Below are positions 23,738-63,053 of a stretch of DNA of 64,000 nt, in pieces (positions within the stretch are counted from its first letter, which is position 1; each line of letters begins with the position of its first letter). A model generated the notes under the pieces. The model did no database searches. It saw nothing but the letters and a program-made list of their open reading frames with translations, and had not been told where the DNA came from. The position numbers and the translations under genes were made by a program. Source of the stretch: an uncultured Alphaproteobacteria bacterium (GTDB lineage Bacteria > Pseudomonadota > Alphaproteobacteria > RF32 > CAG-239); the NCBI GenBank assembly GCA_944390355.1, contig CALXPT010000001.1:47115-111114 (forward strand), read 5' to 3'.

Positions 23738-23784
23738 GTTGAGTGTTATTGATTGTGCTGAGTAACTGCTAAGTTGGTTTTTAT

Positions 23785-23815
23785 AAAAGGAGTAATCGTG
23801 ATTACTCCTTTTATT
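23785..23815. terminator. Bidirectional rho-independent terminator
   Basis: aaaaggagtaatc-gtg-attactcctttt hairpin followed by a T-run, between motB (+) and the XRE gene (-). Confidence 0.65.
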
Positions 23816-23865: not shown

Positions 23866-24306
23866 TTATTCCGTGAGGGTGTCTACAAGGGTGTAGAGAG
23901 CTTGTTTTAGGTTTGGATTTTTGATTTTGGCGATAGATTTGAGCATTGCAATATTTTGTTGGTCATAGAGCGGGTCGCCTTTGTCAAAAGGAAGCGGCGC
24001 GGATGAACTATAGAGTTGGCAAGGGCTTTGACTGGCGGTTTGTTCATCCATATCATCAAAGAAAAAAGTTACCGGAACGCGCAGGATTTTTGCAAAATCC
24101 CACAAGCGGCTGGCACTGACGCGGTTATGACCTTGTTCATATTTTTGCACTTGTTGGAAAGTAATGCCGAGTGTTTGGGCTAATTTTTCTTGTGATATTC
24201 TAAGCATGAGCCTACGCATACGGATACGGTTGCCGACATAAACATCAACAGGATTAGCCGAACCGTCGGCCAAAACCCCGCGTGATTTTTTGCGTTGTGA
24301 AATCAT
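23866..24306 (-). CDS. XRE-family helix-turn-helix transcriptional regulator
   Basis: Cro/C1-type HTH (RIRMRRLMLRISQEKLAQTLGITFQQVQKYEQGHNRVSASRL); ATG at 24306 with GGGGAG Shine-Dalgarno; the track's TTG at 24315 is less likely. Confidence 0.75.
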   Translation of the reverse strand: MISQRKKSRGVLADGSANPVDVYVGNRIRMRRLMLRISQEKLAQTLGITFQQVQKYEQGHNRVSASRLWDFAKILRVPVTFFFDDMDEQTASQSPCQLYSSSAPLPFDKGDPLYDQQNIAMLKSIAKIKNPNLKQALYTLVDTLTE

Positions 24307-24337
24307 ATTAATCAACTCCCCGTTTTATGAATTGTCC

Positions 24338-24364
24338 TAAAAAAGAAAGACCGCAAAAGCGGTC
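24338..24364 (-). terminator. Rho-independent terminator separating the upstream sRNA from the XRE gene
   Basis: On the minus strand, gaccgc-uuuu-gcggtc followed by TTTCTTTTTT, located 30 nt upstream of the XRE start codon. Confidence 0.6.
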
Positions 24365-24580
24365 GGGGAGTTCGTAAATCATGTTCTGTAAAATGATTCC
24401 TATGGTCTTTAAGGAGGAACCTCTGGACATACACCACAGGCTCCCCAACCATAAAAGATTGGAGATGGACGTGGTATATGAAATACCTTACGACATCATC
24501 CGTGTCGTACAGAACAAGAGCTTACGACAGCCCCGTGCCGTTTTATTCGGCACTAAGTACCGGCTATCTACCGATACCTA
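24338..24580 (-). ncRNA. Candidate cis-encoded structured sRNA upstream of the XRE regulator (Brt-like arrangement)
   Basis: Minus-strand promoter TTGAAA-16-TATATT (24587..24614), several hairpins, a covarying stem at 24399..24440 and the terminator at 24338..24364; no plausible ORF. Confidence 0.45.
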
Positions 24581-24586
24581 GCAACG

Positions 24587-24614
24587 AATATACCCGAACT
24601 TTCTTAAATTTCAA
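24587..24614 (-). promoter_or_regulatory. Sigma-70-like promoter for the Brt-like sRNA
   Basis: Minus strand TTGAAA, 16-nt spacer, TATATT. Confidence 0.4.
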
Positions 24615-24657
24615 CTAAAAAAATAACATCGCTGGCGGATGGGGCGGAGAAATGGTT

Positions 24658-24707
24658 GGGGTGGAGAGAGCTGTGGGGTGGAGAGAGCTGTGGGGTGGAG
24701 AGCGTTG
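24658..24707. repeat. Tandem 17-bp repeat (ggggtggagagagctgt, about 3 units) inside a ~260-bp G-rich island
   Basis: Direct inspection; 24633..24895 is strongly purine/G-skewed on the plus strand (local GC ~60% against ~40% for the genome). Confidence 0.7.
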
Positions 24708-24881
24708 CGGCGGGAAGTATGGGGGAACAAAAGGCTGGAGCAGGTGCCGGAGTGAACGGAGAAAGCGGTGGTTGGGCGTGGGACTGAGTGTGAGGGTGAG
24801 GTTTTGAGTGCGGCAGGTTTGGTGCGGAGCGCGGCGGCGGGGCGAGACGGTTGGCAAGGGGGTGCAGGTGGAGGAGCGTGT

Positions 24882-24947
24882 CTAGAAGAAAGTGAGAGCC
24901 GAACCGTCGGGCAAAACCCCGCGTGATTTTTTGCGTTGTGAAATCAT
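24882..24947 (-). pseudogene. Truncated 5' fragment of an XRE-family gene (first ~14 codons conserved with the 23866..24306 gene)
   Basis: Minus strand atgatttcacaacgcaaaaaatcacgcggggttttgcccgacggttcggc is nearly identical to the XRE gene start; the frame ends after 21 codons. Confidence 0.45.
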
Positions 24948-24978
24948 ATTAATCAACTCCCCGTTTTGTGAATTATCC

Positions 24979-25115
24979 TAAAAAAGAAAGACCGCTGAAA
25001 AGCGGTCGGGAAGTTGAACAATCATACTTATTGAAATGACTCTTGTGGCCTTTAAGACCGAGAACCTCTGGACATACGCCACAAGCCTCCCGACCCTAAA
25101 AAAGCTTGAGATAAG
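24979..25115 (-). ncRNA. Degenerate second copy of the Brt-like sRNA 3' portion with its own terminator
   Basis: ~210-bp direct repeat of 24253..24465: the first ~100 nt are nearly identical, the rest ~75% identical with compensatory stem changes; terminator hairpin gaccgc-tgaaaa-gcggtc at 24990..25007. Confidence 0.35.
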
Positions 25116-25175: not shown

Positions 25176-25904
25176 TTATGCTTCGGTTTCGGCATTCTCA
25201 GCGGCCGCCGCTTTATCTAACGCATAGCCTGTCGAACGTACCGTGCGGATATAATCCGGACCATGCTCGTTCAAAGATTTTCTTAACCTGCGGATGTGAA
25301 CATCTACCGTGCGGGATTCTACATATATATTATCTCCCCAGACGTTCTTTAGCAGACTCTCCCTCGAGTGGACTTTATTCGGCGTTTCCATTAACATCTT
25401 AAGCAGGCGAAATTCGGTCGGCCCTAAGTGAATGAATACCCCATTTCTGAAAACCTTTTTTTCTACCAAATCCATATGGATATCTTCAAAATCAAGCTCT
25501 TTGGCCGTGGTCGGCTCCGGTGCTCGTCTCAACTGCGCCTTTACTCGCGCGATTAATTCCGGTACCGAAAACGGCTTGGTTACATAGTCATCCGCGCCCG
25601 AACTTAACCCCTTTATTTTGTCTTGTTCTTCGCCCTTGGCCGTTAACATTATTATCGGAATGTTTTTGATGTCCGGTTTGGAGCGGATAAGTTTGCATAT
25701 CTCAACTCCCGACATCTCCGGCAACATCCAATCCAGTACAATTACCGATGGTTGGTTTTTCTCAATCTCTGCCAAAGCTATGCCACCGCGGTTTACATGC
25801 TGAACTTTGAAACCTTCTTTTTCAAGATTATATTTGAGTAAAAGCGCCAGTGCCTCTTCATCTTCAACCAACATTATCAGTTTTGCCATGATTTTCTTAT
25901 CCAT
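25176..25904 (-). CDS. phoB: Phosphate regulon response regulator PhoB
   Basis: Strong match to the alphaproteobacterial PhoB pattern (LVEDEEAL, VLDWMLP, IIMLTAKGEE, KPFSVPELIARV, GPTEFRLL, VWG, RTVDVHIRRLRK, RTVR..GY). Confidence 0.85.
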   Translation of the reverse strand: MDKKIMAKLIMLVEDEEALALLLKYNLEKEGFKVQHVNRGGIALAEIEKNQPSVIVLDWMLPEMSGVEICKLIRSKPDIKNIPIIMLTAKGEEQDKIKGLSSGADDYVTKPFSVPELIARVKAQLRRAPEPTTAKELDFEDIHMDLVEKKVFRNGVFIHLGPTEFRLLKMLMETPNKVHSRESLLKNVWGDNIYVESRTVDVHIRRLRKSLNEHGPDYIRTVRSTGYALDKAAAAENAETEA

Positions 25905-46350: not shown

Positions 46351-47409
46351 ATGTGGCAGTATATTAACGCGCTGATTGATCGTATTGTGTTGAAAATTAA
46401 ACCTCATGCATCTAAAATCGAAAGGTTTTATAAAAAGCATTATAGTAAAAAATTATCGGCTTGCTCTCAGAGTTTTTTGAAACTTTGTGAGCCTTTTCTG
46501 AAAACATCTCTTAAAAGCAGAAAAAAAATTCTTGAAAATAATCTGTTTGAAAAAATCAGGCTTCTCTGCGTGCTGGTTGTTGTGTTTTTTTCTGCCGTGC
46601 TTGTTTATTCCGGCTCGTGCTGTTTGCTTTTGGCTTTGTTCTTAAATTCTTTGGTTATTTGGTTCTTGTTCCGTGGTTACAGAGCGGCTTATTTATGCGC
46701 CTTGGTTTGTTTTTTGTTTGAGCTTGCATTGGCTTTTAATTGGGTAGTGCTATCGGTTTTCGTTATTGCAGCTGCCGTTCTGTCTTGGGGATTTAGAATC
46801 GAAAATACACGTATCTCCTTAGAAAAATCTTTTCAATTACGTCGGACTTATTTTGATATTTTGAGAGATTGCGTTGCCGCTTCCTTGCTTGCTCTTTTTG
46901 TGTTGCTTGTCGGATTTATTCTGTTTTGGATTTCCGGTGAATCCGCTCAGGAAAAAGAGGCTCAGCTTGTCAAACAGCAACAGCTCGGTATCGTTGCCGG
47001 AACGGCGGCTAGGCATTTGTTCGGTTATGAGGATTTTTGCAAAAATCAGGGATATGTTTTGAAAAACTATCCGGTGGTGTTTGCTAAATTTTTTGCTCCC
47101 GAAATTTCTAAAATCGATACTGCTTTGAAAAAACAAGGCAGCAGTTTGCAAATCTTTTATCAAAATGCCAAAGATGCTTTCGGGCGTCGCCTTTATAACA
47201 GTATTGCCGAAGAAATTGAGACCATTCGTCAACAGGCCATTGTTGAAATGGTTTCATTAAAGAAGAACGTTAATCCTCAAGATGTTTTGTGGGACAGCGA
47301 TATTGACGGTATGATTTCAACAACAGAGGCTTGCGTGCTCTTTGATGAAATGGCCGAAAGCATTTTGTTGCGCCCTAATGCCTCCTTTGATGAAATGAAG
47401 AAATTTTGA
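46351..47409 (+). CDS. Polytopic membrane protein, hypothetical
   Basis: GAGGGG Shine-Dalgarno before MWQY; multiple TM segments; 4-nt overlap with the next gene. Confidence 0.45.
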   Translation: MWQYINALIDRIVLKIKPHASKIERFYKKHYSKKLSACSQSFLKLCEPFLKTSLKSRKKILENNLFEKIRLLCVLVVVFFSAVLVYSGSCCLLLALFLNSLVIWFLFRGYRAAYLCALVCFLFELALAFNWVVLSVFVIAAAVLSWGFRIENTRISLEKSFQLRRTYFDILRDCVAASLLALFVLLVGFILFWISGESAQEKEAQLVKQQQLGIVAGTAARHLFGYEDFCKNQGYVLKNYPVVFAKFFAPEISKIDTALKKQGSSLQIFYQNAKDAFGRRLYNSIAEEIETIRQQAIVEMVSLKKNVNPQDVLWDSDIDGMISTTEACVLFDEMAESILLRPNASFDEMKKF

Positions 47410-60860: not shown

Positions 60861-63053
60861 ATGTCTGAGAGCCGTGGTGAAGAATGGGAAGAATATGATA
60901 AAGCCGTCAAATGGATGATGGTTACTTTTATCGTTACTCTCGCCGTTACGATTTTTTTTGCTTTGTTTTCCTTGCCGCTCGGCTATCTTATCGGCGCAGG
61001 TGTGTCTAAAGGAAGTATGGCGGTTACGGGACAATTTTTGCAAGCCGTGTTTTCCGACCCGTCTTATCTGATTTCCAGATACGGTAGTTGGTTCAGGCAG
61101 CTCGCCGCTTATAACGGTTCTTTTTCCGCCAGTTTATGGCTTCCGATTATTCCGTTTATTTCTCTGCCTGTCGGTATTACCATCGGCTATCTGACAAATC
61201 CGTATCGTTTTCAATCAAATATTCATGGTGCGGCTCGTTTGGCTACAGAAAAAGATATTCGCAAAATGCCGCTGCTCGGGTTTGACGGCTTTTGTCAGGT
61301 GGTCGGAAAGTTTAACGGCAAAATGCTTATGCTTAAGGAAACTCTCGCTACCCTTTGCTGCGCTCCTCCGGGTACCGGTAAAACTGCCGGCGTGGTTATT
61401 CCTACCATTTTTAATTCTCATGGGTTGAGTATTATCGTTAATGACCCAAAACCTGAGTTGTGTTATTCTACAACCGGAGCCAGAGCTAAAGACGGCCCAG
61501 TGTTTGTTATTAACTGGGGTGCTGAAGACAACCCTGCCGAAGGTATTTATTATCCGAGCTGGAATCCTCTTTCACCAAACGCTTTGCCCGCTCCGGGGCC
61601 GGACAGAGACATGTATATCGACTCTATGTGCAATATCTTGGTGGAAGACCCTAAAGGCGGTGCCGACCCTCACTGGTCGACAACCGGTCGTGCCGCACTA
61701 ACCGGATTCATCCATTTTGTGTCTTTTAAATGCGAAAAAGCTCGCGCCAATGACTATTTTATCGGGCGAATCTATGAAGGCAAAATGGATGAAGAAGATA
61801 AACGCGTGCTGGAAGGATATTATCTTGAAATGCATGACCCGCTTGCGGCTAAGGCTATTCAAGATTTGCGCTCCGGCAACCTCACGATTGACAACTATTT
61901 GCCGATTGGTTCTTGGGCTCTGCTACCGGAAAAATGGATTGGACACGAGTCTTGCCTCGCGATGATTTTGGAATGGATTACCGAAGCGCAGATTAAGCAA
62001 TCTGAAGAAATTAAACGTCGCTTGGAAGAAGGCGACCAGATGGCGGCCATGGCTGATCCAATGCGAAATATGCTTGAAGAAGCAATCGATGAAGCCAGAA
62101 AATACGGTTATTCTCAACGCTGTATCGTCGAACTCAGCCAGCTCAGCGCAATGCCGGATAAAGAGCGCGGTTCCGTGTTGTCTACAGGTTTGGCCGGTAT
62201 CGGTATTTTCAAAAACGCGGCCGTGGTTTCGCGCACGAGTTTTTCGGATTTGCAATTTAAGGATTTGCGCGGTATGAAGGATCCGGTTACCGGTGAGTGG
62301 AAGCCGATTTCGGTTTATTTGTCCGTTAACCAAGTTGATGCGCGCGCGTTGAACATTATTTCAGGTACATTTATCGAGTTAATGTCATCTTATTTGATTG
62401 CGAATCCGCCTAAATTCAAAAATAAAACCGACGGTGTTATGGGACCGTTTCCAGCTTTGTTCGTACTCGATGAGTTTCCGCAAATGCCTAAGCTTAAAGC
62501 TATTATCGACGGACCTGCCGTCGGTCGTGGTCAGAAAGTGTCTTATCTGCTCATCGGGCAAGATTTGGGGCAAATCTCCGGAAAATACGGAAAGGACGAT
62601 TTGGAAACGGTTATTTCTACAACGGCTTGCAAAGTTATTCTTTCTCAAAACAATGAGGTTACCGCTCAGCGTTTCTCTAAGATGATTGGCAACAAGACCG
62701 TACAGACAACCTCTTTTTCTAAAACTGAAGGGTTGGGCAAAGGGGCGAATCCGTTCTCCAAAAACGTGTCTTATCAGCTGCAGGGAACGTCGGTTATTTC
62801 AACGACGCAGTTGTTGAGTTTGCCGATGCTTAAACAGGTGGTATTGATGCAAGGGTCTATTGACCGGCCGATTATGGCTGATTCTCCTCGTTGGTATTTG
62901 GACAAGAAGATGAAGGCATTGGCGGCTTTGCCTCCTTCTCCTTGGGTGCCGGATTGGATTGTGGCGCAACGTGAAGATATTAATGATGATATGTTAGCCA
63001 AACTTGCCGAACCGGAGGCTCTCAGTGATGAAGACTTGGAGGATGATGAATAA
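60861..63053 (+). CDS. Type IV secretion coupling protein (VirD4/TraG family)
   Basis: N-terminal TMs, HGAARLATEKDI (HGSARWA-like), Walker A APPGTGKT, NDPKPEL (DPKGE-like), Walker B FVLDEFPQMPKL; acidic C-tail EDLEDDE. Confidence 0.8.
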   Translation: MSESRGEEWEEYDKAVKWMMVTFIVTLAVTIFFALFSLPLGYLIGAGVSKGSMAVTGQFLQAVFSDPSYLISRYGSWFRQLAAYNGSFSASLWLPIIPFISLPVGITIGYLTNPYRFQSNIHGAARLATEKDIRKMPLLGFDGFCQVVGKFNGKMLMLKETLATLCCAPPGTGKTAGVVIPTIFNSHGLSIIVNDPKPELCYSTTGARAKDGPVFVINWGAEDNPAEGIYYPSWNPLSPNALPAPGPDRDMYIDSMCNILVEDPKGGADPHWSTTGRAALTGFIHFVSFKCEKARANDYFIGRIYEGKMDEEDKRVLEGYYLEMHDPLAAKAIQDLRSGNLTIDNYLPIGSWALLPEKWIGHESCLAMILEWITEAQIKQSEEIKRRLEEGDQMAAMADPMRNMLEEAIDEARKYGYSQRCIVELSQLSAMPDKERGSVLSTGLAGIGIFKNAAVVSRTSFSDLQFKDLRGMKDPVTGEWKPISVYLSVNQVDARALNIISGTFIELMSSYLIANPPKFKNKTDGVMGPFPALFVLDEFPQMPKLKAIIDGPAVGRGQKVSYLLIGQDLGQISGKYGKDDLETVISTTACKVILSQNNEVTAQRFSKMIGNKTVQTTSFSKTEGLGKGANPFSKNVSYQLQGTSVISTTQLLSLPMLKQVVLMQGSIDRPIMADSPRWYLDKKMKALAALPPSPWVPDWIVAQREDINDDMLAKLAEPEALSDEDLEDDE

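Follow-up and report, generated by a model that had tools for sequence, protein, structure and literature searches.

We describe a structured leader RNA and a truncated second copy of it, which lie upstream of an XRE-family regulator gene in a 64,000-nucleotide (nt) stretch of an uncultured alphaproteobacterium (GenBank assembly GCA_944390355.1, contig CALXPT010000001.1, forward-strand positions 47,115 to 111,114). This whole stretch is called the window, and positions are counted within it. The genes and RNA elements discussed are on the minus strand, where a promoter-like site is followed by a ~240-nt non-coding leader, an intrinsic terminator, and the gene for the XRE/helix-turn-helix (HTH) protein. 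Read from 25904 down to 23866, the locus comprises a response-regulator gene, copy 2 of the RNA, a remnant open reading frame (ORF), a C-rich spacer, the promoter-like site, copy 1 of the RNA, the terminator, the Shine-Dalgarno (SD) sequence, and the XRE gene.

The promoter-like site (24614..24587) has the sequence TTGAAA-16-TATATT, matches the sigma-70 consensus at 10 of 12 positions, and gives a predicted transcription start near 24580. With both ends predicted from the sequence, the copy 1 RNA would span 24580 to 24340 (~241 nt), and its fold has a z-score of -8.6. The intrinsic terminator (24339..24364) consists of GACCGC-TTTT-GCGGTC at 24364..24349, that is, a 6-bp stem with five GC pairs and a 4-nt loop, followed by TTTCTTTTTT to 24339 (U-tract UUUCUUUUUU). 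Like its counterpart in copy 2, it shows the GC-rich stem-loop and U-tract that define a rho-independent terminator. The XRE gene (23866..24306) begins with an ATG at 24306, on the same strand as the U-tract that ends at 24339, and its stop is at 23866. It encodes a Trp-like regulator of 146 amino acids (aa) (HTH_3, E=9e-12), identical in length to P0002, a near-identical protein.

Structure of the two RNA copies

The RNA was analysed with models R1, R2, and R3. R2, a core-only covariance model built from 102 sequences, and R3, a full-length covariance model, are both free of Bartonella and window-lineage members. In copy 1, the 5' domain of the leader (24451..24580, from the R3 alignment and the family consensus) contains hairpin 1 (24553..24535), hairpin 2 (GGGGCU-GUCGUAA-GCUCU, 24534..24517), whose loop GUCGUAA agrees with the family consensus, and further hairpins, as well as the anti-P1 'A' strand CCAUCUCCAAUC at 24468..24457. 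The domain is followed by a three-way-junction core of helices P1, P2/P2a, and P3 (24364..24448), which scores 94.4 bits with R1 and 77.6 bits (E=5e-15) with R2. P1 pairs GGGGAG with CUCCCC and P3 pairs AAUCAU with AUGAUU; P2 (CCUGUGGU/ACCAUAGG) includes the internal loop GUAUGUCCAG...UUAAAG and is capped by the P2a tip. In isolation, the core adopts the consensus structure (-25.7 kcal/mol). G24364 belongs to both the terminator and the last P1 pair. Furthermore, the 3' strand of P1, AACUCCCCG (24372..24364), is an anti-SD: the SD region CGGGGAGUU (24322..24314) is its perfect 9-nt complement, the two forming an inverted repeat.

Copy 2 (24980..25093) lies 645 nt upstream of copy 1 and is 5'-truncated, with the terminator, the ribosome-binding site, and ~17 codons retained. 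It comprises the core (25093..25007) and the terminator, whose stem-loop GACCGC-UUUUCA-GCGGUC (25007..24990) is followed by a U-tract (to 24980), and R2 detects it at 69.1 bits (E=5e-13). The entire ~130-nt 5' domain is missing, and the stop codon of the response-regulator gene is only 83 nt upstream of copy 2 P1. In keeping with this truncation, copy 2 does not gain from the full-length model (64.1 bits with R3 vs 69.1 bits with R2), whereas copy 1 gains 20 bits. The remaining core still folds into the consensus, at -28.5 kcal/mol. P2 of copy 2 is CUUGUGGC/GCCACAAG, so that two pairs are exchanged relative to copy 1 (C-G to U-A and U-A to C-G), and P1 covaries as well, with GGGGAG/CUCCCC in copy 1 and GGGAGG/CUUCCC in copy 2.

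The copies are related by a direct repeat made of three collinear, gap-separated blocks: 24256-24354 and 24897-24995 are 97% identical over 99 nt, 24355-24413 and 24998-25056 are 75% identical over 59 nt, and 24417-24456 and 25062-25101 are 85% identical over 40 nt. The first block reaches into the remnant ORF MISQRKKSRGVLPDGSALTFF* (24947..24882; 21 codons), in which the ribosome-binding site and the first ~17 XRE codons are preserved before the sequence diverges into the C-rich spacer.

A first-pass annotation, made from the letters of this stretch, had proposed a sigma-70-like promoter at 24587..24614, a ~240-nt non-coding leader, and a strong terminator ahead of the XRE gene, all of which we recovered at those places. 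It had also described a direct repeat that carries the terminator and the start of the XRE gene. The repeat is real, but it contains ~17 codons of the gene rather than the 14 proposed, within a remnant ORF of 21 codons, the XRE start being at 24306. For the body of the repeat it gave ~75% identity; the blocks beside the 97% block have 75% and 85%. The proposal of compensatory changes in the central hairpin, and of selection on structure, is upheld by the two exchanged P2 pairs, by P1, and, as described below, by 19 of 25 pairs across 102 homologues.

Homology to the Bartonella Brt-Trp modules

Previous work in Bartonella has described nine Brt RNAs of 194-203 nt, each directly upstream of an XRE gene called trp, and has considered them genus-specific (Tu et al. 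2016, PMC5387305). B. henselae accumulates large amounts of these ~200-nt RNAs, with hardly any transcription of the trp genes behind them; in Bartonella as well, control of the Trp regulator by read-through is only a hypothesis (PMC5387305). On the sequence evidence, the RNA-regulator module of the window is homologous to Brt-Trp, beyond analogy, because independent models match both RNAs, the published primers and probe map to the Bartonella matches, and the downstream proteins are homologous.

R2, which scores window copy 1 at 77.6 bits and copy 2 at 69.1 bits, gives 44.5 bits for an element on B. grahamii plasmid pBGR3 and matches 17 elements in eight Bartonella genomes at 26-52 bits. R3 aligns 24563..24319 of the window end to end with model positions 1-224 (97.7 bits, E=1e-35) and scores the Bartonella Brts at 40-47 bits. 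With E-values of 5e-15 to 1e-35 from the independent models, the match is well outside what chance would give. Oligonucleotides directed to conserved Brt blocks (BrtF, BrtR, and BrtProbe) are given in Table S6 of PMC5387305, and these map with 0-2 mismatches to the edges of the Bartonella model matches. On pBGR3, BrtProbe matches exactly and BrtR with one mismatch, directly upstream of the only XRE gene of the plasmid. By eye, the pBGR3 element and the window have GGGAG..UAUGUCCAR..CUAAAAG..AACUCCCGG in common, and P2 and P3 are fully exchanged (UUUUGU/GCAAAA and CUGA/UCAG in pBGR3). The window XRE protein and the pBGR3 Trp-like regulator are 37% identical in a whole-length alignment (E=9e-29).

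The conserved central Brt block, which is the BrtR primer site UUCCGGGAGAUUUUGCUAUGUCCA, is present in the window as the 5' strands of P1 and P2 together with the UAUGUCCA loop. The BrtProbe site (CCCGGAAUACCAAUGCGAGGGCGCUCGCA), the conserved Brt 3' terminus, has no match in the window at ≤3 mismatches. A GCGRGGGCGYNCGC hairpin is common to Bartonella and many non-Bartonella members of the family.

The two systems have in common a homologous RNA core and 5' domain, a homologous HTH protein, and the same order of RNA, 3' hairpin, short spacer, and regulator gene; each occurs in several copies, some of them pseudo-copies, within plastic parts of the genome. They differ in several respects. The window RNA has a predicted length of ~240 nt rather than 194-203 nt, and it scores 77.6 bits with the general-family model compared to 41-52 bits for the Brts. 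The Brt 3' hairpin is GCGAGGGCGCUCGC, the site of the Northern probe, whereas the window has the canonical terminator GACCGC-UUUU-GCGGUC with a U-tract. The host also differs: the UvrC protein encoded in the window shares 79% identity with its counterpart in 'Azospirillum sp. CAG:260 / 47_25' (uncultured gut Alphaproteobacteria), and the window belongs to a gut alphaproteobacterium outside Rhizobiales, not to Bartonella. In Bartonella tribocorum (locus L020, 2587-4235), four to five Brt copies are found within ~1.7 kb, some of them weak (26.7 bits); the weak copies have probably decayed, in parallel to the relic copy of the window.

The first-pass annotation had suggested a Brt/Trp-like arrangement, and this holds in a stronger form than proposed, namely as homology, given the independent models, the primers, and the protein match (E=9e-29). 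The two comparisons that it had recommended were also productive: R2 and R3 match the Brt genes at 40-52 bits with the published primers at the match edges, and the search for further copies yielded many, with at least 120 matches in a degenerate-pattern scan and, with a Rhizobium copy as query, matches on 365 plasmids.

A covarying RNA family on mobile DNA

The further copies came from several searches. In the plasmid collection, blastn located the core ahead of XRE genes on plasmids of Rhizobium and Agrobacterium, and with a Rhizobium copy as query, 365 plasmids were matched, 258 of which are conjugative. A degenerate-pattern scan of one genome per species gave at least 120 matches, compared to ~17 chance matches that we estimate for the whole collection; 118 of the 120 listed matches are clearly real. 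Among the matches listed, the proteobacterial hosts include Bartonella, Rhizobium, Phyllobacterium, Shinella, Devosia, Nitrobacter, Xanthobacter, Sphingomonas, Sphingobium, Celeribacter, Ruegeria, Acidocella, Aestuariispira, Micavibrio, and metagenome-assembled genomes (MAGs) of Rickettsiales, with the orders Rhizobiales, Sphingomonadales, and Rhodobacterales represented. Beyond Proteobacteria, the same list holds Granulicella rosea, other Acidobacteria, and MAGs labelled Planctomycetota, Verrucomicrobia, and Melainabacteria/Vampirovibrionales. The occurrence of family members in so many orders and phyla refutes the published restriction of Brt to Bartonella. In addition, the RNA occurs on two contigs of uncultured phages from human faeces (MT836939.1, 7506-7707, and MT835635.1, 22169-22251), in copies 75-80% identical to a Rhodospirillales copy, which fits mobile elements of gut bacteria.

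In a 130-sequence family alignment, a promoter consensus (TTGC-N17-TATNNT) stands at the position equivalent to the window promoter. It is followed by hairpin 1 (UACGC-type loop), hairpin 2 (GGGG-YNNNGNAA-CCCC), a pseudoknot-like CGGUUG-GUGCC-GACCG-..-GGCAC, strand A (UCCUUGACC), a short loop, and strand B (GGUCGGGGAG), which is the 5' strand of P1. The core then consists of P2 with the internal loop GUAUGUCCAR / YYAAAG and the P2a tip, P3, the junction UUnCnAAC, and strand C (CUCCCCG), the 3' strand of P1. At the 3' end, GAUCACCAG... leads into either a GCGGGGGCGYACCGC hairpin or an intrinsic terminator, behind which come the SD and the start codon. Across phyla, the unpaired nucleotides of the junction core are nearly invariant. 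The canonical terminator is specific to lineages, and the feature conserved family-wide is sequestration of the ribosome-binding site.

Across 102 homologues, the helices covary very strongly: a pair is present in 97.4% of cells, double changes occur in 19 of 25 pairs (514 cells), and the covariation score reaches 0.630, compared to 0.227 in shuffled and no more than 0.124 in slid-partner controls. A second set, which includes the window lineage, Bartonella, and Ti plasmids, gave 97.3% paired and a score of 0.587, and in the 5'-domain hairpin all six pairs covary on an unrefined MAFFT alignment. One G-U pair is conserved in a strand-specific manner (G-U in 31 and G-C in 37 of 101 sequences). 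RNAalifold on the raw full-length MAFFT alignment was muddled by competing G- and C-run strands, and helices were projected manually instead. From these comparisons, RNA structure at the locus is, we judge, under selection.

These results leave very little room, and in our view next to none, for the idea that the element is a non-functional repeat or mobile-element scar, or else an unannotated coding region. The region is duplicated, the module lies in different neighbourhoods among related strains, and two 46-aa ORFs overlap the leader, as such a reading would have it. Against this stand compensatory changes in every helix, the strand-specific G-U pair, and independent models that reach E=1e-35, and the overlapping 46-aa ORFs are not conserved. 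Covariation and the independent models together have effectively refuted this explanation.

Searches of Rfam 15 in gathering and E-value modes gave no relevant match on the window, the Rhizobium/Agrobacterium loci, or eight genome loci including Bartonella, and ARAGORN excluded a tRNA or tmRNA at the element. The likeness of some motifs to the 3' end of 16S rRNA and to the Alu domain of the signal recognition particle RNA was set aside as coincidental, since the elements come in a different order and P2 lacks a conserved sequence. QfsR, a small RNA (sRNA) of pTiC58, is ~188 nt long, widespread on RepABC plasmids, and often present in several copies per strain (bioRxiv 10.1101/533729). It is similarly plasmid-borne, multi-copy, and of comparable length, but it occupies a different locus, between atu6119 and atu6120, and R1 finds nothing in the QfsR region of pTiC58 (L142). 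Within the literature library available to us, which is incomplete, we found no description of the wider family or of an RNA in the traM leader or untranslated region.

In Ti plasmids of both the nopaline and the octopine type, the RNA forms the leader of traM and ends ~20 nt before the start codon. The traM leaders of L140 (3992-4218) and L141 (3994-4215) are full-length members (R3, 115.6 and 106.5 bits), and Ti-plasmid traM leaders score 57-116 bits across the independent models R2 and R3. As in the window, a full-length family member precedes a small regulator gene, here that of a mobile element; unlike in the window, the downstream gene is that of the TraR anti-activator TraM rather than an XRE gene, and the 3' element is a GCGGGGGCGCACCGC hairpin without a U-tract. 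In a Rhodospirillales MAG (L049), an ORF for a 95-aa DUF2285/RovC_DNA-bd protein lies 74 nt downstream of the RNA, a domain that we take to be that of the QseM/FseA regulators of integrative and conjugative element transfer. Together, traM and the L049 gene place the RNA before conjugation regulators of the anti-activator type.

Products of the first downstream ORFs in the family include DUF5818, DUF2285/RovC-type (QseM-like), and Rha-like proteins, GIY-YIG and Mrr nucleases, and, by eye, a large serine recombinase-like ORF, GGDEF- and HD-GYP-like proteins, and many lipoproteins or membrane proteins. A general tie between the RNA and XRE genes was rejected, as an XRE gene is downstream in 9 of the 120 listed loci. 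Moreover, neither the S. meliloti homologue, which lies on the chromosome between lnt and metK, nor the plasmid XRE genes of Leisingera, Bradyrhizobium, Chelativorans, Asticcacaulis, and Shinella have the RNA. No conserved upstream or downstream neighbour was seen among the listed RNA loci. On an octopine Ti plasmid (L141, 3563-3895), a ProQ/FinO-family gene is directly upstream of the traM leader RNA; with adjacency in one of ~140 loci, ProQ/FinO was rejected as a general partner. In F-like plasmids, FinP, the traJ leader, and FinO exemplify control of the regulator genes of conjugative elements by structured leader RNAs. The present family resembles that system in its structured leaders before conjugative-element regulators and in the one ProQ/FinO neighbour, but it has no evident antisense partner, is unrelated to that system in sequence, and shows the ProQ/FinO adjacency only rarely.

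A predicted switch in the leader

Three lines of evidence bear on how the leader could act on the gene behind it. First, the 3' strand of P1 is complementary to the region where translation of the downstream gene starts, with a median duplex energy of -10.0 kcal/mol, compared to -5.75 kcal/mol for other genes of the same loci (p=2.5e-18), and the SD tracks the P1 subtype, CCGGGAG occurring with CUCCCGG and CGGGGAG with CUCCCCG. Second, the family-wide median for the A:B duplex is -13.25 kcal/mol, compared to -9.3 kcal/mol for shuffles (p=8e-20), and by eye strands A and B change jointly between subtypes, CUCCUU with GGGGAG and CUUCUC with GGGAGG. Third, the minimum-free-energy fold of the read-through RNA of the window (-57.3 kcal/mol) combines A:B with C:D, the pairing of strand C with the SD, and encloses the terminator. 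Forcing P1 in this RNA gives -49.0 kcal/mol, a cost of ~8 kcal/mol. The C:D duplex of the window, with nine perfect pairs and -17.6 kcal/mol, is the second strongest among 80 family members. Therefore, from the pairing of strand C with the SD, the A:B pairing, and the minimum-free-energy fold, the default state would be the one in which the SD is masked.

The locus consists of a full-length Brt-family member and a truncated relic, and we consider it probable that the leader is a cis-acting switch. In this model, most transcripts would stop at the intrinsic terminator and give a stable ~240-nt RNA. In read-through RNA, the P1 3' strand AACUCCCCG would have two alternative partners, the P1 5' strand and the SD CGGGGAGUU, and the upstream strand A (CUCCAAUC) would compete for the P1 5' strand. 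By default the A:B and C:D helices would form, masking the ribosome-binding site so that no XRE protein would be made. Were the junction core stabilised by some ligand, protein, condition, or by co-transcriptional folding, P1 would form, the SD would be freed, and XRE would be translated. The terminator should add attenuation in the window lineage and release the stable ~240-nt RNA, as modelled here, which matches the abundant Brt RNAs and silent trp genes of B. henselae.

Translational riboswitches with a P1/anti-SD platform, such as the SAM-II and adenine 'add' types, offer a close analogy. Like them, the family has a covarying junction, a closing helix whose 3' strand is an anti-SD, and a competing upstream strand; the aptamer fold is backed by covariation, and the computed A:B, B:C (P1), and C:D pairings are mutually exclusive, as in a riboswitch-type expression platform. 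In classical riboswitches the regulated genes share a pathway, and in this respect the family departs from them, with no coherent gene pathway among 93 downstream ORFs. It also differs in the lack of an Rfam family, the larger size (~200 nt), the extra 5' domain, and the lack of a candidate ligand.

Several observations weigh against the switch model. Single-sequence folds of the full leader favour other long-range helices (-105.4 kcal/mol, compared to -84.6 kcal/mol with P1 forced), and several alternative pairings are open to the G-run and C-run strands. The control genes in the SD-pairing test have longest-ORF start codons, which may weaken that control. Alignments A3 and A4 were fitted to the model, and because the scan pattern demanded the loop motifs, the loop invariance in A3 is partly by construction, with the helices unconstrained; members found by blastn, outside the pattern, keep close loop variants, as in the traM leaders (CAUGUCCAGG and CUAAAGG). 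The downstream genes are hypervariable: the largest cluster among the 93 downstream ORFs has nine members (XRE), and most are singletons. Finally, an antiterminator that would compete with the terminator hairpin of the window was looked for, and none was seen. The proposal in the first-pass annotation that terminator read-through controls the HTH regulator, an idea also put forward by Tu et al., is unsupported in the window because no such antiterminator was found.

The SD-masking helices also raise the possibility of an RNA thermometer, in which C:D and A:B would melt with temperature as in the ROSE elements of Rhizobiales. A CU-rich strand does mask the SD, and Bartonella alternates between arthropod and mammal temperatures (PMC5387305). 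Nevertheless, we regard a thermometer as very improbable: nine perfect base pairs at -17.6 kcal/mol are far above the stability of a thermometer helix, the conserved junction core would be superfluous, and the family is found in soil, marine, and gut bacteria.

Alternatively, the RNA could act mainly in trans, as an sRNA that base-pairs with targets or sponges a protein and whose CU-rich strands (CUCCCC, CUCC) would bind the ribosome-binding sites of other mRNAs, and its adjacency to the XRE gene would then reflect co-inheritance. A trans role has been proposed for Brt1, antisense knock-down of which altered badA expression and biofilm formation (PMC5387305). Given the strong terminator of the window, free RNA should dominate, and the gene-less copy 2 is kept in all related strains. 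However, the match between the P1 3' strand and the SD involves the immediate downstream gene, is subtype-specific, and occurs family-wide, which is a cis feature, and many members have no terminator before the gene. A mainly trans-acting RNA thus seems to us unlikely, although cis and trans roles are compatible.

Related strains and surroundings of the locus

Copies of the XRE protein with 99-100% identity were found only in ENA and Logan metagenome assemblies. The gene occurs in at least four neighbourhoods, namely rpe and the response-regulator gene / motB-motA-gcrA, as in the window; yceG / fabF-acpP; rimO / mdh; and the response-regulator gene / mdh. The same truncated copy 2 is found behind the regulator gene in four related contigs (L011, L013, L015, and L019), and this, together with the variety of neighbourhoods in which the XRE module occurs, is consistent with recombination between dispersed copies. 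The leader cores of L011-L019, which are ENA metagenome contigs of near-identical strains, are mosaics of four variants, with compensatory changes in P1, P2, P2a, and P3 among the variants of the lineage. This suggests recombination or rearrangement among dispersed copies in these strains. We infer that copy 2 is a recombination relic that would at most terminate the response-regulator transcript or form its 3' end.

One related contig, L012 (2140-2500), shares with the window an identical 146-aa XRE gene, the C-rich stretch, and the -35/-10 elements, but has an unrelated ~300-nt leader with its own terminator. This alternative leader has no R1 or R2 match and no Rfam match above threshold. 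Leaders appear to be swappable modules. The C-rich stretch corresponds to the 270-nt spacer between the RNA copies in the window (24625..24896), which is C-rich and G-poor on the transcribed strand (52% C, 11.5% G), has a GC content of 0.56-0.64 compared to ~0.42 in the surrounding genome region, and includes a 17-nt unit repeated three times in tandem (24640-24707). Upstream of the promoter, six related loci (L011, L012, L013, L015, L018, and L019) have a homologous stretch. The spacer may be an insulator resembling a Rho-utilisation (rut) site.

These features are relevant to another explanation, that the leader senses nothing and is a constitutive, portable cassette of promoter, stabilising 5' structure, and attenuator that provides low fixed expression and insulation from neighbouring transcription. 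The unrelated leader before the same XRE gene in L012, the rut-like spacer, which suggests insulation, and the variety of downstream genes, often mobile-element cargo, are all in its favour. Such a cassette would hardly account for unpaired nucleotides that are near-invariant across phyla or for two mutually exclusive helices that are apparently both selected, and we think this explanation distinctly improbable, more so than a role in trans.

Upstream of the locus, the response-regulator gene (25176..25904, minus strand) is of the OmpR/PhoB type, with Response_reg and Trans_reg_C domains. Downstream, a perfect 14-bp AT-rich hairpin, formed by an inverted repeat (23783..23814), separates the convergent XRE and motB genes and is likely a bidirectional terminator that ends the XRE transcript. 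This hairpin was also the source of spurious sub-threshold Rfam matches to plastid psbA 3'UTR families. A gene for a VirD4/TraG-like type IV coupling protein (60861-63053) marks a conjugative element close to the window's end.

Implications for Brt RNAs and conjugative elements

For the window alone, the outcome is relatively modest: a Brt-like attenuator before an XRE regulator, and a decayed duplicate. For Bartonella the consequences are larger. Brt RNAs have been published as Bartonella-specific, and the locus shows that they are one branch of a large, strongly covarying family. The family supplies a comparative structure for Brt, with a three-way junction, invariant loops, a 5' domain, and an anti-SD platform, and it makes the riboswitch hypothesis of Tu et al. 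directly testable.

On a more tentative note, and with clearly less confidence than for the switch at this locus, we suggest that the window leader, the Brt RNAs, and the traM leader could be one ancient class of ~200-nt structured RNAs, found across phyla but not in Rfam. This class would reside mainly on plasmids and other mobile DNA, before regulators (XRE, TraM, DUF2285/QseM-like, and Rha) and hypervariable cargo, and would function as an orphan riboswitch or a protein-responsive switch that senses a host-state signal and gates translation by release of the anti-SD. The extension of the family beyond Bartonella may be new. It places a conserved RNA element before traM, a key brake on Ti-plasmid quorum sensing and transfer, and provides a candidate for a new orphan class of regulatory RNA, missing from Rfam and tied to mobile DNA.

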